Shown here in pieces: positions 6,944 through 45,802 of a stretch of 64,000 nucleotides of DNA. A model generated the notes under the pieces. The model saw nothing but the letters and a program-made list of their open reading frames with translations, was not told the origin of the DNA and searched no databases. This stretch comes from Chrysomallon squamiferum (taxonomy: Eukaryota > Animalia > Mollusca), in assembly GCA_012295275.1 (NCBI GenBank), contig CM022678.1, forward strand, positions 11,160,001 through 11,224,000. The letters run 5' to 3'. How positions within the stretch are numbered: position 1 is the stretch's first letter; each line of letters opens with the position of its first letter. The translations under genes were made by a program, and so were the position numbers.

Positions 6944-9900
6944 GCCTGTTGCCCTCTGTCTGTATGTCTGTGCATCATATTATCCTGTCTGCCTGTCTCT
7001 AAGTATTTGTATATATAATAAAATATATATAAAAAGAGTAAATAATGAATAATATTTATAAACGTAAGATAAAATTCTGAGTAACATGTTGGTTTTACAA
7101 AACTGTAAGAACAATTATTCTTATTATATTACTTACTTTTTTTTTTTTTTTTTTTTTTAAATAAATAAATAATTGATTTACAATAATAATAATAAAGAAC
7201 ATAGAAATATAATAATACCATTTATCATGGTTTATAAGCAAATTATTTCTCTGGCTAAATATGGCCTCTTTCTGTTTGCACAAGAAGGTAAAAACTGACG
7301 TGTGTTAGACAGCTCACAGAGTGGGTTTGTCTTAGATCTGGCCTTGGTCTTATCTGCTTTAGATAAATTTACTGATAAAAAAAAAAAATAATAATAATAA
7401 AAAAAAAGTCTCATGTTATAAAGATTAAACGATAGGGCTATAAAACATGAAAAACTTATAAATTTATAAATTACTACCACCAAAAAAAAAAAATCCAAAA
7501 ATCCCTGAAGATTTAATATTTTAAAAATAATAAAATCTAACTAAAAATAGTAAAATGTAAAGTACTAGATGAATGTCTAGGGTGTTACTATATGAAGATG
7601 AAAGTGTAAGAAATACTTGGAAATAATGTTAATAAAATTACATAAAATACTTACTGCAAGTCTATGAAGTTTCGGAAATACTCTGATGAGAGTTTATAAC
7701 AATTAAAAAAATATTTTGATATATTGTAAAAGTAATAAAATTTATATAAAATACTGGCTGCAAGTCTAGGATGTCTCAGAAATAGTGTAATATATTATAA
7801 AAGTAATAAAATTATAGAAAATACTGGCTGCAAGTCTAGGATGTTTCAGACGTACTTGGAGAGATTTTAACAATAATAAAATGATATAAAATACAGGCTG
7901 CAAGTCTAGGATGTCTCAGAAATATTGTAATATATTGTAACAATAATAAAATGATATAAAATACTGGCTGCAAGTCTAGGTGTTTCAGAAATACTTGGGG
8001 AGATTGTAACAATAATAAAATGATATAAAATACTGGCTGCAAGTCTAGGTGTTTCAGAAATACTTGGGGAGATTGTAACAATAATAAAAATGGCTGATGC
8101 TATTTACATCAAATAGATAAAATTTCTGGCAATCATACAAAGATAAGAAAAGAAAAAGAAAAAAAAAAAGAAAGAAAGAAAATTAACCGTATTTTGTCAA
8201 ATGTCAGATTGGTCCAGTTTAGTTCTTGTAGAAGTTGTTGTTGTGGTATAAGAGATAACAGAAGTAGTAGTAGTTGTTGTAGTAATAGTAGTAAATACAA
8301 AACTTGCTGCCCCCTGGCATACCAAGGTTTATGATTAGTGTGTGCTGCTGTTGTTGTTGCTGTTGTTATTATTGTCACGGGTGGTGATGTTGTTACATTT
8401 CTTATTTCCAGTTCTAGCCACGTCCTGTGACTGCTTATGAAATAAACATTATGTGAAGTTGTATATACAAAATCATCCACTTTCTTTAAGTTAAATAACA
8501 CAATTCTTGAATCTAGTGATAAAATAATTTCCATTTACAGTCACTGTTTGGTTAGATGAAACAAACTTCAATATTTCCTCTTCAAAGTCAGTTGGTTCAG
8601 ATATGAAATACTGTCAGATATTGTTCAGATAACTCTGATGAAACATTATGCATGCTAGATGGAAACTGGGGGGAAACTAGGGTGGTCAGAATAGACCCTC
8701 AGGCTCAAAAATAAAATATATATATATATATATGCTTTTTACTTCTCTCTCGTTTTTATTTTTTTATAAAATTTATACAAGGGGATGATGATGATTAATA
8801 AATAAATTACATTGGACAAAATCTTTTATATTTGTTACATTTATTTTATTATTTATTTACTTGTATTTTGTTTTGTTTACAGAAAGACAACAATTATGCT
8901 CCATATCCTCTGGAACAAGTGCGTCACATGTCTTACCAGCTGTGTTACGCAGTCAACTGTGAGTAACATGTAACGTAACCCTTGTTTGTAATCAGCAGGA
9001 GTAACCCTGCTACAGGTTTCCTCTCAAGTGTCATTTTGAAAGTAAATAAATAACAGATGAGAAAATACTGAATATGTTAAGTTGCTGCTAAAATAATGTC
9101 AGTGTTTTTTGTTTTTAATCAGGTTAAAAAATCTACGCTAGATACTTAATTTTCCAATCCGACCAGTGTTCAGTTTAATGTCTTTTCATTTCTGTGTTTA
9201 AAATCATACAGGACATCTCTGATTTTCAGTTCCAGCCAGTGCACTTCCCTCTCCTATTTTATCTTTTTTATTTTTTTTTTAAATATGCAGTTTTACAAGT
9301 GTCACATCTCTGTCTCGTTTGTCAATTTTTTTTGTCTTGTTTACATTGCAATGTTTTTGTTTTCAGTTTTACATGAAAATCAGCTGACTCACACAGATCT
9401 TAAACCAGAAAATATTTTATTTGTCAGTTCTGACTACGATGAAATTTATAATCCAAGAAAGGTAAATGTAATAAATAATTGTATAGTGATCATCCTCTCA
9501 CTTTACTGTTTCTGTGTTGTTTACAGTACTGCCTGCCTGTCATATGTATAGGTATGTGTGCACATGCATACATACACACGACACACAGAGACAGACACAT
9601 ACAACACACAGACACAGAGACACATACATACATATGCACACACAGACATACAGACACACACATTCTTACAGACACAAACAGAAAAGTTACAAGACTTGAA
9701 ACATCCAAGTAATGTGTAAAATATTTGTTCATGCATTCTTTTGTTTATCACCAAGTAGTAGAAATTATTCCTAATTTTGAATTATTTTTTTTTCAACTTC
9801 AGAGGAGAAACGAGAAAAGAATAAAAAATACGGAGATTCGCTTGATCGACTTCGGGTCCGCAACGTTTGACCACGAGCACCACAGCACCATCGTGTCAAC

Positions 9901-10022
9901 GCGCCACTACAGGGCTCCTGAGGTCATCCTCGAACTGGGCTGGTCACAGCCGTGTGACGTCTGGAGTGTGGGCTGCATCATGTTTGAACTGTATACAGGA
10001 TATACGTTGTTTCAAGTATGTT

Positions 10023-10074
<52 letters not shown>

Positions 10075-10394
10075 TCTGTGATGTACTGTGTATGTATGTA
10101 GTGTATCTCTTATTCACAAAGGGGAGTCTATAAGTCAGCTGGAATGCAGAAATCTGCAATGAAATATAATTATTCCTCTTTTTTTTTCATTTTCGTTTTT
10201 ATTTTTATGTTAATTCTATTATAATTATTATTATTGTTATTAGTATTATTATTATGATTATTATTGTTATTGTTATTATTATTATTTGTTAATTGTTTAA
10301 TGTGTTTCTTGCAGACTCATGATAACAAGGAACACTTAGCTATGATGGAAAGAATACTTGGTTCCATTCCATACCGCATGGCCAAAAAGACCAA
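2298..10394 (+). CDS. CLK2: LAMMER/CDC-like dual-specificity kinase (CLK/Doa), shared kinase-domain exons; the 5' part lies upstream of the window
   Basis: Phase-consistent GT-AG exons: 2298-2414 ([24 protein letters not shown]), 2828-2918 ([30 protein letters not shown]), 8883-8958 ([25 protein letters not shown]), 9367-9461 ([18 protein letters not shown]), 9803-10015 ([41 protein letters not shown]) and 10315-10394 ([16 protein letters not shown], the LAMMER signature). The symbol is a family-level assignment. Confidence 0.97.
4340..4990. repeat. Compound intronic minisatellite (82-bp units, then ~6 x 47-bp units)
   Basis: AAGCATTCTAGA recurs at 4492, 4574 and 4656; ATAAATATTGTTAAATATAGGCAGGTTTTACATTCTAGAYTGAGTCT recurs every 47 bp from about 4674. 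Confidence 0.9.
7600..8090. repeat. Intronic minisatellite, ~70-bp unit
   Basis: ATACWGGCTGCAAGTCTAGG at 7751, 7821, 7891, 7961 and 8030. Confidence 0.9.
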
Positions 10395-11377: not shown

Positions 11378-11544
11378 TTATTTTAATATAAAACACGTAA
11401 AAAAGAATGAGTTAGGTAATAAAACGAGACCCTGCGTTGCGTTGCGTTATGAAATGAACTGAGTTTTTGCTGTGAACTGAACTGAGTTTTGTGATTTAAG
11501 AACTGAGTTTTGTGATGTTAAGAACTGAGTTTTGTGATTTTAAG

Positions 11545-11632
11545 AACTAATTTCTTCTGGCACGGCCGCCTCGACTGGGACCCGACGACATCTGCCGGGC
11601 GCTACGTGCGGGAGAACTGCAAACCACTCTAC
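11545..11632 (+). CDS. CLK2: CLK post-LAMMER insert exon, copy a
   Basis: TAAG|A ACT...CTC TAC|GTGAGT; 88 nt, phase 2 to phase 0; encodes (K)[29 protein letters not shown], the conserved CLK LDWD...SAGRYV...CKPL segment. Confidence 0.93.
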
Positions 11633-12254
11633 GTGAGTACTGGGCATGCTCAGTGCACCTCCGTCCTACGTCTCGCAACAGTAGACGCATGTTTTAATCT
11701 TAAACCTGTTTTTTTTAACTTTATCAATTTTGGTGCATTTTTTTTAAAGCATTACGTGTGCATGTTAACACTTGTTGTGTGGTAATGAAGGTAGTTACTG
11801 TGAAGAGGTGACTAACGATTTAATTAAACGAGTCGGGTGGGTGGGGTTTTGATTGCAGGTGCAAACAGGTAATGCTAGAAAAATGCACTGAATGAGTACT
11901 GCAGGCTTTGTTTGCTTGCATGTTTGTCATGAACTGGTCTTAAAGCTGTTTGGGTAACAGATCTACACTATGGTGTGTGTAAGAGTATTTCTGAGTCCAT
12001 CCTTGCATTCGAGTATGCATACATGACATGAGTGTGTGTGTATCCTTTATAAAAATCATTGATGAAGATTTCAAACATTCATCCATTTTAATTTTTTTTT
12101 AATTTTTTTTTTATCTACATACACCTGTGACTGTCTTGTTACCCAGACAGTCTTGTCAGTCAGTCTGTCTGTCTGTCTGTGTGTGTGTGGGCATGTTGTC
12201 TGTAGCTGTTTTTTTGCATTTGTTTTTTTTTTTTTTTTTCTCTCTTGATTGAAG

Positions 12255-12345
12255 AAAACAAAAATACTTCCATCGGGGCAAGTTTGACTGGGACCCAGAC
12301 AGCGAAGCAGGTCACTATGTCAGAGTTCACTGTCGACCAATCAAG
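12255..12345 (+). CDS. CLK2: CLK post-LAMMER insert exon, copy b (paralogous, mutually exclusive candidate)
   Basis: Long poly-T tract, GAAG|A AAA CAA...ATC AAG|GTGAGT; 91 nt, phase 2 to phase 0; encodes (K)KQKYFHRGKFDWDPDSEAGHYVRVHCRPIK, colinear with copy a and with no stops. Confidence 0.88.
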
Positions 12346-12584
12346 GTGAGTCAGTCCCCCCCCAAGCCCCCCGGCCCACACCAACAGTTAAAACTTATCC
12401 ACACCAAGGTGAAATGTATTTTATTTCAGAAGTTTCAATTTTACATATCTTTCTTTCTTCTTTTCTTTTTTATTTAATTTTCTTTCTTTCTTTCTTTTTT
12501 CTAAAGCTGATGGTTAATATGTATTCTTAGAGACTAAAATATTATAAAATTATGAATGCAGAAAATAATTCATCAGATGTCTTT

Positions 12585-14053: not shown

Positions 14054-15694
14054 CACGGTCTGATAGACAAAGGGGTTGACGATATCCAGCTGTTTGACCT
14101 AATAGAAAAGATGCTAGATTACATGCCGGAACAGCGCATCACACTGTCGGAGGCCTTTAAACACCCCTTCTTTGCCCCCTTACACAGGGACTCCCCCAAG
14201 CGCCAGCTCTCCCCCATATCCTCTGACACCGTAGATAGTAGCACAACTAACAGCCTGAATGTAGATAAAACTACTACTACTACTACTACCACTACTACCA
14301 CCACTACTACTGACAATAAACCAAGCATGCCTGACACTGAGGTTGACGTAGTTGCTGAGCAGGCGGTGGTTAAGAGCGACGTTGAGACTGTCGCGTCAGC
14401 TTCGGGCTGCGTGACGGTGGCGTTTGCGAAAGAGCCGACGCCCATTTTCTCACCCCCGGGTTCAGACAGGCGTGGCAATAACGACAGGGAAGGGTCTCTA
14501 CGAACTCTAGCCACCCCTGCCCTGAGAAACGTAACAGTACCCACCCCTGAAATTAACACGCCCGAGAAAAAGAAAAGTTACAGTGGTTCGTCGGAGAAAA
14601 AGTTGTCTTCCGATTTAATAGACACGCTTACCTCTTCAGGGTCCTCCCCCCAAAATATCTCTCCCCAGGACTCGAAAAGAAGTGATGGTGCCCCGTCCTG
14701 CCCCGCCCCATCCACGGGTAAAGTCGAAAACACCACGCCCTTGTTTAGTGATTTAGAAGACAAGCGAATGCTGGCCGAGTTGGACCGATTGTTTCCCAAA
14801 TCCAGTTTGAAAAGCGATTCTAACGAAACGGAGTCGAAATCAAAAAGTGAAAAGACTGAACCAAAATTGATTATTTCCGATCCTGGGGTTCCGACGTTTT
14901 CAGTGCAGAGTCCCAGCGTCGATCATCTTGATGAAAAGTCTTCTGGCGAAGCTGGGTTAAAAGAATCGCTGCACACAGAGATGGGTCCTTCAATTCACTG
15001 TCCTGCGTACAGAGGACCCATCCAGCGACAGAAACCTGTGTCTGACGACACGAACACGCCAGACGCACAAAGCAAAGTTTCTTCTGAATCACTTTCTAAA
15101 ACAGCAGAGCCGAAAGTTACAGATTCTCAGTCTAAACAAATGGATCCCAGAATCAGTGATCCTGTCTTGCATTCTAAACAGGTGGATTCCAAAATGACTG
15201 ATTCGGTTTCTAAACAGCCAGATTCAGGGTCTAAAGATCCAGGCTCTGCTGGCGTTGATTCACATTCTAAACAGACAGACCGCGAGTCCGATTCCTCCGA
15301 GGAGTCGAGTTCTGATTCAGAGTATTACCCAGCTTCCGAGCACAGCGCGTACTTCCTGCTGAAAAGCCTGACCGACCCAGTGCATCCCATGATGCCGAGC
15401 GAGATGCCGAAGTCAGATCAGCTGCTGCTGCAGAAGCTGAACTCCCCGAGTCCGAACTCTCGCAGGAAATCCAACTCCCACCTGTCTGAACACTGCTCGG
15501 ACAGCCTGAAACGGGCGAAGGCTGAAAGTAAGAAAGCAGAACAGTCCTCGGGGTCACCTGACCAGTCATCCACGCAAAAGAAAGTGGATTCGGATTCGGT
15601 TAAAACGGATCCGTGGCAGTTTTTGATGGATTCTGACGTTGGCAGGCGAAACAGTGAGCAAGGTCAGAACCTAGCTGACAGTGGTCACAGGTGA
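14054..15694 (+). CDS. CLK2: CLK alternative terminal exon A: kinase subdomain XI plus ~500-aa S/D/P/K-rich disordered tail
   Basis: TTTTCTTGCAG| phase-0 acceptor; HGLIDKGVDDIQLFDLIEKMLDYMPEQRITLSEAFKHPFF, then open frame to TGA at 15692-15694 (546 aa); AATAAA at 16126-16131. Confidence 0.88.
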   Translation, partial: HGLIDKGVDDIQLFDLIEKMLDYMPEQRITLSEAFKHPFFAPLHRDSPKRQLSPISSDTVDSSTTNSLNVDKTTTTTTTTTTTTTTDNKPSMPDTEVDVVAEQAVVKSDVETVASASGCVTVAFAKEPTPIFSPPGSDRRGNNDREGSLRTLATPALRNVTVPTPEINTPEKKKSYSGSSEKKLSSDLIDTLTSSGSSPQNISPQDSKRSDGAPSCPAPSTGKVENTTPLFSDLEDKRMLAELDRLFPKSSLKSDSNETESKSKSEKTEPKLIISDPGVPTFSVQSPSVDHLDEKSSGEAGLKESLHTEMGPSIHCPAYRGPIQRQKPVSDDTNTPDAQSKVSSESLSKTAEPKVTDSQSKQMDPRISDPVLHSKQVDSKMTDSVSKQPDSGSKDPGSAGVDSHSKQTDRESDSSEESSSDSEYYPASEHSAYFLLKSLTDPVHPMMPSEMPKSDQLLLQKLNSPSPNSRRKSNSHLSEHCSDSLKRAKAESKKAEQSSGSPDQSSTQKKVDSDSVKTDPWQFLMDSDVGRRNSEQGQNLADSGHR

Positions 15695-19685: not shown

Positions 19686-19895
19686 CGCTACCTAAAGGAA
19701 CCTGACAGTGAGGAACATCGTCAGCTCTTCGACATCATCACCAAGATGCTGGACTACGACCCCCACGAGCGCATCGCGCTGAAGCAGGCGCTGAGGCACC
19801 CGTTCTTCCGCCGCTTCTACGAGGAGGACCTCGTGCGCAGCTTCGACAACCCCAACACCAAGGACCGGTGTCGCTCGCAGAGTCTGAGCAGATGA
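19686..19895 (+). CDS. CLK2: CLK alternative terminal exon B: canonical short C-terminus
   Basis: TCTTGCAG| phase-0 acceptor; RYLKEPDSEEHRQLFDIITKMLDYDPHERIALKQALRHPFF...RSQSLSR*; GC-rich coding-like island in AT-rich surroundings. Confidence 0.93.
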   Translation, partial: RYLKEPDSEEHRQLFDIITKMLDYDPHERIALKQALRHPFFRRFYEEDLVRSFDNPNTKDRCRSQSLSR

Positions 19896-28659: not shown

Positions 28660-28870
28660 TATTTGACTTGAATGGATTAATCATTTCTCTCAATGCTCAT
28701 CATTCATCTTGAATAATTCATCATTTCTCTCACCGATCCTCCTTTATCTGGAATGATTCATCATTGTTCATCTTGACTGATTCATCATTTCCCTCACTGA
28801 TCATCATTTATCTTGAATGATTCATCGTCGTTCGTCTTGAATGATTCATCATTTCCCTCACTGATCATCT
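28660..28870. repeat. Degenerate 64-bp tandem repeat straddling the PRMT stop codon
   Basis: CYCTCACYGA anchor at 28727, 28791 and 28855 (period 64), plus a shortened unit at 28687. Confidence 0.8.
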
Positions 28871-30164
28871 CCGAGTCCAGCTGATGACAGGCAACTACAC
28901 CGGCAGCAACGTCGACGAGTTCGGCCTCTGCCTCCAGCTCTCGGTGTTCCGTGTCGTACTTCTCCATCACAGCCTTAATCAGTCGACAGCGAGGCGCACC
29001 GCAGTCGCAGGGCACAGCGTGTTCCTCGGCGTCTTCCTCCTCACTGTAGTCAGCATCGACTTCGTCCGAACCTTCAACCTCGATTGAAATATTGTAGTGT
29101 CTTTTGTTGCCTTCATCCTGGGAGAGTTCCACCTGAATTGTTATGTTATCTCCCTTGTCTGCACACAGAGTCTGAGGGAGAAGGAACGCTGTTTGTTTCC
29201 AGTGGGTGGCAGGTGATGACGGCGACGTGCTCAGGACAACAGGGGAAGCTACTCCATTTGCAGAAGCAGAATCGGTTAGAGTTATCCCTTCTTGGCTTGA
29301 GAACGGCTGAAACAGAACATCGAACCAGCAGGCAAAACCCTGAAGCTCTGAAGATTTGTTCAGGGTGAAGGTCAGGTTACTAGACATTTTCTGTACATCT
29401 TTCAGCAACACCGATTTTAAATCGATACAACAGATTTCCTGACTGTCTGACAGCACTTCATCGCAGTTCACTTCAGTAATCACAGGCTGCCGTCTTGCAG
29501 TTGCCATGGCTACTGACACAACGGGAGAGAAGTCAAACCCGTAAACGTTCTGCCAGTAGTCGACATGTTCACTGCAGTATTTCTCCAAACTCGCTGGAAC
29601 AATTTTCAAACTGGCATGAGAGGGGACCATCATTCCGTCAGACTTGAGGTATTGGTCTCGTGCAAAAATCACAGAATCCAGCATGGATTCATGAAACAGG
29701 TAGAACCCCATCCACTCGGAAACTATCACATCAACTTCAGTCCCGCGAGGCAAAACATCGTCTTCAATTCGACCTTGAATGACTTCAATTTTCGACTCCA
29801 GCCCATTCGCCACTACAATCTGTCGACACAGATTCGCCACATCGCTTGCCTCAACGGCATAAACTTTGCCCGCTCCGACTGATGCGGCAAAAAGTGAGAG
29901 GATTCCCGTACCAGCTCCAATGTCGAGGACAATTTTGCCACGTAACTTCTCCGAGTTTTCCTTAAAGAATTTTCTGTAGGCTAAAGTACGGGGTCTGTCT
30001 TTTAGCATCAACTCGTGAACAGAGATGTCATTGTAGCTTTTAAAATATTCGTCGTTTTTATTTGTTTTGTCAACCATTGTTTCTTTGTCGTCTGCTTTTT
30101 TGGGGTCAATGTCCTCGTGACCATTTTGTAATTCCTCTGTGGTGATTTTATTTGCAGACGTCAT
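28794..30164 (-). CDS. Protein arginine N-methyltransferase (type I-like; PRMT6/Art8-like), intronless CDS, 456 aa
   Basis: YFxSY helix, motif I VLDIGAGTGILS, post-I VYAVEAS, double-E loop SEWMGFYLFHESML and THW loop THWKQT. Likely 5'UTR acceptor at about 30201. Confidence 0.95.
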   Translation of the reverse strand: MTSANKITTEELQNGHEDIDPKKADDKETMVDKTNKNDEYFKSYNDISVHELMLKDRPRTLAYRKFFKENSEKLRGKIVLDIGAGTGILSLFAASVGAGKVYAVEASDVANLCRQIVVANGLESKIEVIQGRIEDDVLPRGTEVDVIVSEWMGFYLFHESMLDSVIFARDQYLKSDGMMVPSHASLKIVPASLEKYCSEHVDYWQNVYGFDFSPVVSVAMATARRQPVITEVNCDEVLSDSQEICCIDLKSVLLKDVQKMSSNLTFTLNKSSELQGFACWFDVLFQPFSSQEGITLTDSASANGVASPVVLSTSPSSPATHWKQTAFLLPQTLCADKGDNITIQVELSQDEGNKRHYNISIEVEGSDEVDADYSEEEDAEEHAVPCDCGAPRCRLIKAVMEKYDTEHRELEAEAELVDVAAGVVACHQLDSEMISEGNDESFKTNDDESFKINDDQ

Positions 30165-31920
30165 TTTTCAAGTACTGCTTCATTTCTTTGATAACAAAAT
30201 CTGTAACAATCAAAGTAATAAAAACGTTAAATTATATAAAATGTGGAATATTTCTGAAATTATGTAACTTATTTCTTTTGACCGTTTGACTTGATTAAAA
30301 TAAAAATTAAAGTAAAATAAAATAAAATTACTTTGTAATGTTTGTATAAATCATAAAAATCTTTGGAAAATATCTTTGCAATTCGATGAAGTACCTTTTT
30401 AAATTTTTACGCTCAAATTCTAATACTATCAGTCTAAAATTCATAACAATCATTTTATTCTTGACGGTAAAAAAAAAATAATAATAAAATAAAAAAAATT
30501 AAAAGTCCAAGTAATTTGAATAACATTGGTAACTTAGAGATCACTGAAAATTAATAAAACGAATAAAATATGAACCAAACTGATATGGAATTATATACCA
30601 TCTGAGTTTTAAACATCAATATTGACGAAATTTACACACGTGTTTACAACTTTTCATTTTATCCGCGAATGTAATTCAAGGGAAATAACTCTAAAAGAAA
30701 ATACAAAACCATGCCAAAAGTCCAATTACGTGGCGTTCAAAACATGAAAGTCATTGGCTTCTGAATTTCGGAAATTTAATTTGATTACTTCATACTTGTT
30801 ATTCTTATTTTAAATTATTTTTCTATTGACTGCCTCAAATTAATCTACTAATATACTTTATTACAAAAATGAATTATACATTATTAAGTTTGAATAAGGA
30901 AAACAAAACAGCATAACTAAATCAATCAATTGAATAAGTTTTTTTTTCTTCTTTTTTTTTCTAATTTTTTTAATTATTTTTTTTTTTACTTGTTAGAAGC
31001 TTTCTACTGGGGTGCTATTTTTTAGGTGATGTACAAATCACCTAAAATTAGATAAATGTTTTTCAATTTCATGTTAGCATATGCCTCACTATTTAATTTA
31101 CGAAGTAGGTTACATAAAATATTCATTAAAAATAGCTTACTGTATTCATTTCTAGAAAGACCATGAGTAAATCAATTACAGACCTGCAAAATGGTTTTTA
31201 TATGAAACAACAAAATGGACAAAAGATATACATTTAGTAATTAGTTAATGCTTAATAACACTGAACCAAATGATGTTAAAATTTCCAGTACCTAAGAAAA
31301 ACAATTATTACTAGTATTATTATTTTGTTACATATGTACACCACTTATGAATGCAGCTACCAAAGACAGCTCATACAGACACACACACACACAAAAGAGA
31401 CAGAAAAACTATGGAACTATGAAAAATGAAGACAACACAAAACCAGATATAAAATATATTTTAATAAGAATTAAATACAATAAGAAGCACCTGTGATACA
31501 GTAGTAATGTTATGTATCTATGTCACTGAAAAATTTAAGTATTTTATTTTGATTAAAAATACCTACTGAAAAAATAAATAATAATTAAAAATTAAAAACC
31601 TGTATAAAACAAAAAATTAGCAAATTTCTATTACCTAAAACAGAATACAGAATTTCCAGTATGAATGAAAAACCAAAATATTAAGATAGTGTAAAAGTGA
31701 CAAATAATTTAAAGAATTTAAAATTTTTAAATGATCGACATAAACTGTAAGTACATACATGACTGACAACTTATTTCAACTGTATAAACAGACTTTACAA
31801 ACTTATCAAAGATTATTTTTAAATTTTTGATTTCCTTTAGACATTTTTGAGCACATGGTAACCAAGCTGCAGTCAAAGATCTGTTTTTAAAAATTATTTT
31901 TTTAAAAATATATATTTTCT

Positions 31921-32889
31921 TTATTTATCTTTCTCATCATGAGCCAGAATCCAGTCGATTCCGTTACCTTTGTTTTTAATCCATGGACACGGAATAATGA
32001 AATTCAGGAACCAGAACTGTCCAAAAACAGATTTGAGATTTTCACTGACTGGTTGTTTGTAGAGCTTGACGCCCTTGACAAACTCGTATGAACTCTGACC
32101 TGTTCTAACCAGCAGACACTGCCAGACGAAGAAATAGAGACACGAAACGAAAGTCACGCAGCTGAGGTAACAGTGGAAAATTAACCCAACTGTCCCAGCG
32201 CCGATGGCTCCCGTCAACCACCGCAACATCACCCACGGCAAAAGATAGACGTAAAATTCGTAACCGAAGACGTGTGCATAGTGCTGCTGCAGAAACGATG
32301 CTGTCGCGTAGACGCTGTAGGCCGTGGCCAAGCAGCTGTAGAAGCAGAACACGACGAAGAATCGCTGGTTGTGGAAGCCGATGCAGCAACCCGAGAAGAA
32401 GCAGTGGTGGTCTCGTTTGAGGACGCAGTGGTTGCAGATGGGACAGTGCTTGGCGCGAGGGGGCGTGTGCAGTCGACACGTGTCGCAGTACATCCACTGG
32501 TGAAGGCGCGGGTCAAACAACGGCAATGATGCAGTTGACGGACCAACAACTGAGTCTCGCGACTTGATCAGCATGAGAAGATAATTAACAACAGCAACAA
32601 CGGTGAGATACACCAGCAGACACTGCCTGCTCCACAAAACATCATCATCAGCACCGCTGTAGACGTCAGGCAGAGTTACTTTCACTGCAATCGCCACAGA
32701 AACCAGTAGGTAAAGAACAAAGAAAGAAATTGCACCAACATTCAGCAACTGCAGCTTCCATCTGAGGGTGGGTCTAAGGTTTCTGGGTTGTAACTCGAAG
32801 TTGTGGGTGTGGTAACCATTTGGCTGGGCCAGGGCATCCACAGGTACACCAGAAATAGTCTGTCTTGATAACAGCAGATTCTCTTCCAT
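31921..32889 (-). CDS. DHHC palmitoyltransferase (ZDHHC22/24-like), intronless CDS, 322 aa
   Basis: Cys-rich domain CDTC...[36 protein letters not shown] flanked by hydrophobic TM segments; QSSYE in the TTxE position. Confidence 0.95.
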
Positions 32890-33086
32890 GGCTTTCTCTC
32901 AGTCTACAACTTTGAGTTTTAGCTCATCACTTCATCTTGGCTGCAAACTGAAAATAGTATAAACAAAGGTTACTTCAAAAGTCACTGATTTTATTTTTTA
33001 TTTTTATTTACTTTCAGTTTGCTGGTTAATCTACCTTCTTCTTTTTCTTTTTCTTTTTTTCTTTTTGTGCAGAGGTTAGAAACAAT

Positions 33087-35663: not shown

Positions 35664-38600
35664 TCACCAGCTTGACCTTGTTATTCCTGACATCTGGTTG
35701 TAGTCGACTAACTGTCGCCAGACAATGCGACTGAGTCGCCAGCTTCGCTTCACACTGCGAGGCCGTGACGTGACAACGCATCTTGCTCTCAGTCGAGTTA
35801 TACAGCTGTCTCGCGGAAACTCCGCTATCTCCTTGTCAGCAATTTCCTGTAACAATAACAACAACAACAACATTAACAACATTATCATTAACAACGCTAA
35901 CATTAATAACATTAATAATGATAGTAATGATGAAAATGTTTATAGTTCTTATAATTCTTCTTCTTCTTTTTTGTTTTTTTGCTTGTTGACTACTTGTCAA
36001 GGCTAGCAGTGACTATGAACTAACTGTTCTCCGTAGATCACTTCTTCTGGAGAGTTGTTGTAGTTGTCTAGGAAGTCTCCTGCAGCTGCTGTAGGGTTCA
36101 TGCAGTTTTCGATGACTTGGGTGAAAGGCTGTGATTTGTTTGGGGGGTCCCCTAGATTTAATATGCGCTGATTTCATCTCTTGGTACGTCATGCAGTTAT
36201 CCTCCTGTTCATTATCTGCACCTACTTTTGCCAGTCTGCCAGTATTCCTTTGTTTGTCTGCCATATTCTTTTGTAAAAAGGTCAGACAATTTCATATCTG
36301 TGAGTTTATTTCCATTCTCCATAAGAGAGATCTTCTGTCCATGGGATTCTTTCTCTTTTAGTTGTTTTGTAACTTTCCATATTTTGGTGCTGTCTTTTTC
36401 AAGACTGAGTGAAGCAGCTTTGTCTTCTAGCTTTTTATGGGATTCAATCAGGTATATATCTTTAGATTGGTGGAGGTTTGGGCTCTTTTTGGGGGTTCAG
36501 GTTAGACTCTTATTGGGGTCAGTTCATCATGTGGCATTTGAATTTTTTTCATTCCAGTAAACGGAATACACTTTTCTGACTCCTCTTGGGATATTTTCTT
36601 TGATGGTTTTGTTGATTTTGAGTTGGTATTCTTTAACTACTGTATCTCTGTCCCTTACGTTGACTTCAGTATCTTCTGTCAACTGACACATGCAATACTT
36701 GAACTTTTCCCATTTGGCTTTTCTTAAGGATATCATTTAAGATTAGGAGGACCAATCAATGGTCACTCCCCCCCTAACTGTGGTCCCACTTCTCGACTGG
36801 TTTTTCTATTTACACTGACGGGGCAGAAGACTGGTGACGTCTCCAACAAGGAGGAAGTTTCTTGTCTGATATTGGAATATCATCAAGGCAGAGTTACTTG
36901 TCACTTGGGCAGTAAGAATTTACAATGAAATGTCTTTGTTTTGATTCTGACCTCAGTGAATTCTATTAGTTTCAATGTCACTCGGGTTGTTCCTAACCAG
37001 AGTCACCGTTCCAGTCTTGTTTGTTCCACTGTGATCACTTCTGAATGTCTGGTAGCCTCTAACCTTGAAGCTCACTGATTCTGTCAGATGGGATTCTCAG
37101 ATGCAACAGACGTTGATCTGGTTTTCAAGCTTACAGAGCTGAAGCTCTGTCTTCCTGTTTAACACTCCCTCTGCACTCCAGTGTGTGTTGTGTTCATAGG
37201 CAAGGATGTTTTTGTTTTTGTCTGACCAGTAGCTCTTTGTCCATGTTCCCAGGCTCTTCACGATGGTCAGGAAGAGCTTCCAGCAGCTCAAAATGGGTTT
37301 CCCTTGAGGTGAAGAGTTTGCTGCTGCACATGCTTGTTGAGGAGTCATCACAGAGTAAGAACTGATCATATCATCGCTGTCTAGAAATGCAGTCACAACA
37401 GCTGTTGGTGTTCTGTTAGACTGTGCCTTGCAGACCCATATGTCTGACTTCAGCAGTTTCTGTTTGGGTTACCTCATCCTTAGTCCATGTCTGCCTGGTC
37501 TCCTCTGACCACTGACCAGTCCAGCTTGGGCATCCCTACCAGAAGCCAAAGATCTCACTCACACAGTTCTTACAGTGATTGAGATATATAAAAAAAACAC
37601 ATCAACCACACCAAGGAACAGACTATGAAGGGGGACGATAAAAATATAAACAATAACAATAACTGCAATAAAAACAAAAATAACATTAAGAGTAACCATA
37701 ACTGGAAATAACTCTTAGAATGACCAAAAAAAAATAATTCTACACAATTTTTAATGGAAAAATGTACTTTATATGTGAAAGTGAAGACATTCAGCTGTCA
37801 ATCAACTGAGATTTAAAATCAAACATTAGTAGTGACATTTGATATGCATTTTTGTCTGATGAAAATTTACCTGTATTTCTTTGGGCAGAATCGTGTTTTT
37901 TCTCAGAGAATTCACTCTCTGTCTTTCTGCATTATACTGTTTAACTAATTTACGTCTTTTTTCATCTCGTATCATTTTCCAGTCCACATATTTGGCTCGT
38001 ACTTGCATTTCCTGTATGTTTGGTTGTCTCCCCTGAATCTGTTGCATTAGACTTGGGATACCCAGGTTAGATTGGAAAAAACTCCATCTTGAGTAGGACA
38101 GCTAGAATTTAACAAGAAACAGTATGAAAAATACTGGATGAATGAAAAAATAAAATAAATAGATGAATTAATAATTAACAAATAAACATACTTTGAACAA
38201 TATTTCAGTATATTTTAATATTAATGAGTTGAGTTGTAAATTTCTAAATCATTTTTATACTGAAATTTGTAACTTATGTTTAAAAAGTTTTATATATGTG
38301 TTAAAAACTAGTGATTTAAAATGTTTATTACTGTTAAGATCATTCAATAGATTATTTATTATTGTCAGTAAGATTTATTAATTATCACAGAAAATATAAT
38401 AATAATAAGAGTAAGAATAATAATTAGAACATGAATATGAATACAAATAACAATAACAACGACATCTAAATGATTAAACCTGGCAACTAGTGACAGAAAC
38501 ATTCAAATAATACGAGAAACTGTATTAAACTGACTGACATAATTTTAGTGAACAGATACATTGTGTGTGTGTGTGTGTGTGTGTGTTTGTGCATTTGTCT

Positions 38601-43015: not shown

Positions 43016-45802
<2,787 letters not shown>

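Follow-up and report, generated by a model that had tools for sequence, protein, structure and literature searches.

Among described systems, the closest worked example of the arrangement reported here comes from a different kinase family: JNK1 and JNK2 are CMGC kinases, as the CLKs are, and two alternative exons (6a/6b) combined with two C-termini give four isoforms per gene, as presented in PMC8699841. The JNK tails differ by ~42 residues, whereas those of the snail CLK gene analyzed here differ by a duplicated last exon, which amounts to ~500 residues. JNK 6a/6b lies in a more N-terminal part of the C-lobe than the CLK exons (hereafter a and b) and involves a U12-type intron; in contrast, all donors of the CLK gene are GT-type and U2-like. 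Old homologous exon pairs with tissue-biased use are also described for FYN (T/B) and for the protostome Ca-alpha1T in a paper on tandem duplicated exon substitutions, in whose main text CLK has no occurrence (PMC9741552). The CLK a/b pair has so far been seen only in trochozoans. The CMGC insert of DYRK1A/1B occupies the same structural region, and swapping it alters autophosphorylation and folding (PMC12738607); in that case, however, the variants are paralogous genes and not spliced exons, and CLK has an additional helix, alphaH. For CLK itself, a 2025 survey gives one gene in molluscs and brachiopods and describes the isoforms of the fly and worm kinases as N-terminal only, the term "mutually exclusive" being absent from the accessible portion of its text (PMC12795684). 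Our search of the full-text literature, which covered main texts and few subscription papers, returned no description of the CLK a/b pair; public gene models already include both isoforms. The pair belongs, as an old member, to a known class, the tandem duplicated exon substitutions, and is enlarged by a mollusc-wide alternative last exon.

The window is a 64-kb stretch of DNA from the gastropod Chrysomallon squamiferum; its + strand carries a CLK/LAMMER kinase gene, of which the 3' part lies inside the window and the 5' part outside it. Features of the CLK/LAMMER family are present, namely a characteristic 11-residue motif, an HTD catalytic loop and the kinase domain. An RS-rich disordered N-terminus is found in the Haliotis orthologue, and the counterpart region of Chrysomallon is outside the window. 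Five upstream constitutive kinase exons (~2298-2414, 2828-2918, 8883-8959, 9367-9461, and 9803-10016, +) precede the constitutive LAMMER exon (10315-10394, 80 nt, +), which encodes helix alphaG and the first helix of the MAPK-like insertion and whose donor is the point of choice between exon a (11545-11632, 88 nt, +) and exon b (12255-12345, 91 nt, +). The exon order is LAMMER - a - b - T1 - T2, where T1 (14054-15694, +) is a proximal and T2 (19686-19895, +) a distal last exon. Exon a encodes a 29-residue insert/alphaH module and exon b a 30-residue one; the two-strand sheet, alphaH, and the conserved Trp (CLK1 W419) of the MAPK-like insertion are present in both. A previous interpretation of this DNA made from its letters alone (the sequence-only reading) had recognized the a/b pair and left the second duplicated unit, T1/T2, undescribed. 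Elsewhere in the window we observed the exons of what we take to be an elongation factor 1-alpha-like gene (43298-45800, +), as well as open frames on the - strand that presumably resemble an arginine methyltransferase (28797-30167), a membrane protein (31924-32898), and mitochondrial ribosomal protein S14 (37829-38101).

Exons a and b match each other at E ~2e-8 to 6e-8 (tblastn within the window), and b had been correctly proposed as a true paralogue of a, with the right coordinates and peptides. Thirteen of 29 residues are identical, 7 of these 13 being encoded by different codons, and third codon positions are the least alike (11/29 identical vs 36/58 for first and second positions), in agreement with the heavy codon divergence under protein conservation that had been claimed. 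As for the conserved pattern put forward, F..G..DWDP...AG.YVR..C.P, the likeness of a and b stands, but the Pro of DWDP is no part of the old a/b conservation because, in a comparison with 13 other named species, none of their b exons has it. Across the DWDP codons, a (11573-11583) and b (12286-12296) are nonetheless identical over 11 nt; given that the b exons of other species are without the Pro, this identity may reflect either convergence or a short gene conversion.

Each of the two exons begins in phase 2, finishes in phase 0, and is flanked by an AAG acceptor and a GTGAGT donor; either exon by itself keeps the frame open. Double inclusion leads to KTKILPSGQV followed by a stop at 12285-12287, 58 nt ahead of the b donor, and skipping of both exons leads to a stop 3 codons into either last exon; recomputation thus confirmed the premature stop and the frame loss that the sequence-only reading had predicted. 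Only single inclusion of a or b preserves the frame. Nonsense-mediated decay has a limit of 50-55 nt from a junction, to which the stop of the double-inclusion product is close. Such products would be cleared by nonsense-mediated decay; among worm clusters with non-3n exons, 14 of 19 depend on this pathway according to PMC4165533.

Evidence for the use of both exons came from RNA. T1 is present in five sequencing runs, of which four are on record as RNA, all from one study, and these four contain 0.74-0.88 of the T1 words. We aligned to positions 11420-12570 the contigs of four of the five runs: X1, X2, and X3 (RNA), and X5, which behaves as DNA. The RNA data are assembled contigs without tissue labels and thus report presence, not levels, absence, or single molecules. 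Transcripts containing 12255-12345, on which the earlier proposal depended, were found in all three RNA runs, where exon b is covered exactly over these positions, with the start of T2 as a loose end. In X2 and X3, the end of the LAMMER exon directly precedes the first base of exon a (11545), and in X2 (one run) exon a runs on into T1. The LAMMER-a, a-T1, and b-T2 junctions were therefore read directly, and we infer the LAMMER-b junction from the exact start at 12255 and from a 28-nt lead that is also seen at a. No a-b joint was detected in the X1, X2, and X3 contigs across 11420-12570, nor were a-T2 and b-T1 junctions detected among the same RNA contigs; these absences constitute weak evidence because contigs omit rare forms. 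Contig depths were 271/39/135 for b and 15/9/~13 for a, values that hint at a predominance of b but from which parts of a gene cannot be ranked. Two differences were read inside exon a, both synonymous, and none in b. The claim of paralogous exons used one at a time and kept under long-term selection is supported: each is spliced singly, and the RNA junctions, the frame logic, and orthologues from three named phyla agree. We consider it almost certain that a and b form a functional mutually exclusive pair.

In X1 and X3, some contigs extend past the end of exon a and cover much of 11633-12284, including the a-b intron; the sole a contig in X1 is one of these. This intron cover is possibly pre-mRNA, retention, or DNA. 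Regulated intron retention is known for CLK genes, and exon a could on this ground serve mainly to control the amount of kinase by leading to intron retention or unproductive RNA, with the a protein being secondary. This role is improbable, as a encodes the more conserved of the two peptides, the a-T1 junction in X2 is in frame, and a-type proteins are present in all of the species tabulated below; moreover, pre-mRNA or DNA may account for the intron cover. The Lineus model P0173 and the Arion record P0005 likewise end shortly past the insert exon.

In order to place the pair among other animals, we collected 20 clusters of relatives, sorted the isoforms by the segment after LAMMER, and tabulated 20 named species; species with fewer than three records were mostly left out, and most of the orthologue isoforms are predicted gene models. 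The best single-domain hit for the 71-residue core exon comes from the gastropod Gigantopelta aegis (97%); the records of this species match exon a in full and the start of T1 almost in full. We found a-type proteins in 20/20 tabulated species, and a-type and b-type in the same gene in 15 of them: the molluscs comprise three Haliotis species, Pomacea, Biomphalaria, two Octopus species, Magallana, Ruditapes, Mya, Dreissena, and the chiton Liolophura, and the non-molluscs are the nemerteans Lineus and Tubulanus and the brachiopod Lingula. Gigantopelta, Patella vulgata, Crassostrea virginica, Sinanodonta, and Pecten showed a alone in the records compared, their clusters being centered on an a form. 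Both types also occur in one JGI organism (P0199 vs P0309/P0310), with the same upstream core of 122 residues. Each named annelid gave a single type, which was a for Helobdella (twice) and Dimorphilus and b for Owenia; the rotifer records resemble b, and the arthropod records show one 29-residue type. A duplicated insert exon was found in none of the vertebrate or insect records compared, which form a non-systematic set, and a pattern search for two modules in tandem gave 0 out of 316 LAMMER-bearing protein stretches. Two insert exons were present in 0 of 80 metagenome loci, a result uninformative on absence since no recognizable mollusc genomic DNA is among them; one metagenome locus with two last-exon matches 45 nt apart was rejected as a split hit. 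A query with the Lineus a segment retrieved 3 candidates only.

Across 11 molluscs, identity between species is 89% for a and 62% for b, whereas a and b within one species are 56% identical. Exon a shows fixed differences, being one residue shorter and having Trp at position 5 (13/14) and a terminal Tyr (13/14). Our tree comprised 42 rows and 30 columns, its bootstrap was not fully settled, and the lengths of the Mya and Dreissena b exons were set by eye; in it, 18/18 a-type rows fall on one side of a 97/93 branch, and b rows intermix with vertebrate, urchin, rotifer, and arthropod exons. A duplication restricted to Haliotis was rejected (p-AU 0.027). From the sequences we infer a single ancient tandem duplication that had taken place by the time molluscs, nemerteans, and the brachiopod last shared an ancestor. 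A clade of a plus arthropods was not rejected (p-AU 0.51); the duplication may therefore predate trochozoans, and possibly dates back to the protostome ancestor, with arthropods keeping the short type. In the simplest reading, a would be the derived, tightly constrained copy, highly conserved among trochozoans, and b the canonical, freer copy, diverged in Chrysomallon. The portrayal of b as a hidden copy is thus reversed: b is of the canonical type and b+T2 is the CLK2-like form, whereas a appears to be the derived copy. The likeness to human CLK2 and CLK1 consists of this canonical b+T2 form and of exon b aligning end to end, without gaps, to CLK1 408-437 and CLK2 410-439. In Chrysomallon, b matches human CLK2 with 37 bits and a with 43 bits.

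The branch leading to Chrysomallon b is long (0.67), and a clade of only the a and b of the window was not rejected (p-AU 0.147); both would be expected if b were degenerating, had arisen recently in this species only, or were produced by an error of assembly. This possibility is largely refuted and scarcely credible, given that b is spliced in 3/3 RNA runs, that one X5 contig spans a to b unspliced, and that b-type exons are found across phyla.

The second duplicated unit consists of the last exons. T1 provides 546 residues, with the end of the kinase domain followed by a Ser/Thr/Pro/Asp/Lys-rich tail of 501 residues (19% Ser), and T2 provides 69 residues, with a paralogous kinase-domain end and the canonical short tail ending in SLSR. 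In a search within the window, T1 and T2 are alike at E 8e-10 over the kinase-domain end. Counterparts of T1 were found in a chiton, gastropods, bivalves, and cephalopods, whereas 14 records from nemerteans and brachiopods contained none; the disordered-looking tail varies in length between mollusc species, from ~110 to 900 residues. The last-exon duplication therefore appears to be a second, mollusc-only event, yielding the long tail of T1 and the short SLSR tail of T2. In public records, long T1 isoforms carry the misleading names titin-like, caldesmon-like, or STE20-like.

Counted by species, the combinations were a+T1 in 15, b+T2 in 12, a+T2 in 9, and b+T1 in 8, with the single last exon of non-molluscs scored as T2 and one Lineus record having another short end. 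All four combinations occur in Mya. In Chrysomallon, the RNA contigs show a-T1 and b-T2 as the sole junctions of a or b with a last exon, and b is found only with T2 in 13 Haliotis records, as would be expected if a and b were near-equivalent and had been kept mainly because a packs best with T1 and b with T2. We regard such a packing constraint as very improbable, since nemerteans and Lingula have the a/b pair and no T1 among their 14 records, and since the opposite pairings also occur, b+T1 in 8 species and a+T2 in 6 of the molluscan ones. These same combinations rule out a strict a-T1/b-T2 coupling as a general rule. We favor instead a 2 x 2 isoform set made by the T1/T2 duplication and the a/b choice, in which a would lean to T1 and b to T2 in Chrysomallon, with a coupling that is not obligatory across molluscs.

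Regarding the means by which one exon excludes the other, U2/U12 incompatibility was ruled out because the LAMMER, a, and b donors all begin with GTGAGT; the U12 donor consensus was used for comparison. Steric exclusion, for which PMC5740500 gives a branch point less than ~50 nt from the upstream donor, was ruled out because the a-b intron (11633-12254, +) is 622 nt long, with 29 AG dinucleotides and an AG-free zone of only 49 nt; ACTAAC occurs at 11811. We also searched for docker/selector elements, and the 25 longest of 438 inverted pairs turned out to be AAT/ATT microsatellites. A hairpin behind the a donor was no better than shuffles (z -0.5 to -1.1). Of 5 stretches that were folded, the one preceding the a acceptor reached z -2.1 (7/200 shuffles), which is attributable to the tandem repeat located there. 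In this stretch (11495-11553, +, repeat family D20), the exon a acceptor is repeated three times as 15-nt copies with 22-nt spacing; the copies ahead of the acceptor itself would not be in frame, and single-base deletions were read within this stretch in X3 and X5.

Among 10 acceptors, those of a and b are the only two with AAG in place of CAG, and their pyrimidine tracts are the weakest (a, 50%) and the strongest (b, 86%). The a-b intron contains five GCATG motifs (11644, 11687, 11760, 11918, and 12191) vs 0.79 expected, a number reached by 0/2000 shuffles for a motif that was picked from 7 tried; the stricter TGCATG, observed twice and reached by 116/2000 shuffles, shows no enrichment. The five GCATG motifs suggest that Rbfox may control the a/b choice, as documented for mutually exclusive exons in worms (PMC3585155). 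We propose that a or b would be spliced behind the LAMMER exon one at a time, based on the frame and on the lack of a-b joints, that b, with its strong pyrimidine tract, would be the default exon, and that a, with its weak tract and five GCATG motifs downstream, would be switched by an Rbfox-type factor, the choice likely being regulated by tissue. The full proposed mechanism, from the splicing choice through to the tuning of the protein described below, seems to us reasonably probable.

At the protein level, the insertion of CLK1 spans 400-432; residues 409-418 form a two-strand sheet, Trp419 packs on the LAMMER helix, and alphaH starts at 424 (PMC2667211). The segment had been identified as the MAPK-like insertion, and it is indeed the second half of it plus alphaH; the first insertion helix lies in the constitutive LAMMER exon. 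It had also been placed next to the docking region, and alphaH does lie over the SRPK-type groove, but the exon covers the groove rather than forming it. The structure prediction of both isoforms that had been called for was performed on Haliotis a+T2 and b+T2 and gave two short strands followed by a helix in each, with a model confidence of ~59-79 over the swapped segment. The best fold match of the a+T2 model is CLK2, and Haliotis b+T2 matches CLK2 at E 1.7e-187. As both models keep the strands and the helix, the swap would preserve the fold and alter surface and packing. It is thus likely, judging from these models, that the a/b swap tunes the surface of the lower C-lobe of the kinase rather than the active site.

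A direct effect on substrate choice, by reshaping or uncovering the docking groove beside the insert as in JNK 6a/6b, was considered as well; isoform-specific substrate recognition had been put forward in the sequence-only reading. The exon encodes the alphaH that lies over the groove used by SRPK1 (PMC2667211), isoforms of JNK 6a/6b are tabulated with alternative substrate binding (PMC8699841), and the fixed differences of exon a (its shorter length, Trp, and Tyr) could be taken in the same sense. Such an effect is nevertheless unlikely: alphaH blocks the groove in CLKs, the authors of PMC2667211 conclude that targets are chosen via the active site, the helix is kept in both models, and the catalytic exons are common to both isoforms. 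By analogy, partner binding, folding/maturation, or localization is favored over direct substrate docking. The CLK insertion is listed as one of three hot spots of CLK divergence (PMC12795684), and the equivalent insert is reported to govern DYRK1B maturation and to serve as a docking platform in CDKs and MAPKs (PMC12738607). The most likely effect of the swap on the protein would accordingly be on partner binding, folding/activation, or localization through the hairpin-Trp-alphaH module.

Trochozoans mostly have a single CLK gene, and one gene likely makes kinase versions tuned by tissue. CLKs set SR-protein phosphorylation and temperature-dependent splicing, and the exon duplication would, if our interpretation is true, represent a paralogue-like diversification of the main splicing kinase that feeds back on splicing. 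More tentatively, two insert/alphaH modules kept since the trochozoan ancestor, a kinase end added in molluscs, and an Rbfox switch might together give tissue-specific CLKs with their own partners or temperature profile, a scenario that we consider possible although doubtful. The a/b modules, present across phyla in an otherwise identical enzyme, offer a natural swap experiment on the MAPK-like insertion and alphaH, and the pair qualifies the view that an invertebrate CLK gene encodes a single, uniform catalytic domain.

Some variation was also observed within and around the insert. The b exons of Tubulanus, Dreissena, and Mya (P0176-P0178, P0028, and P0036) are without the otherwise invariant Trp (CLK1 W419), which their a exons retain. 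The JGI organism has ~12 extra residues ahead of exon a (P0309 and P0310), and Drosophila willistoni and Musca (P0100 and P0113) carry 6 extra residues close to this junction; a 6-residue Doa variant has reportedly been published.
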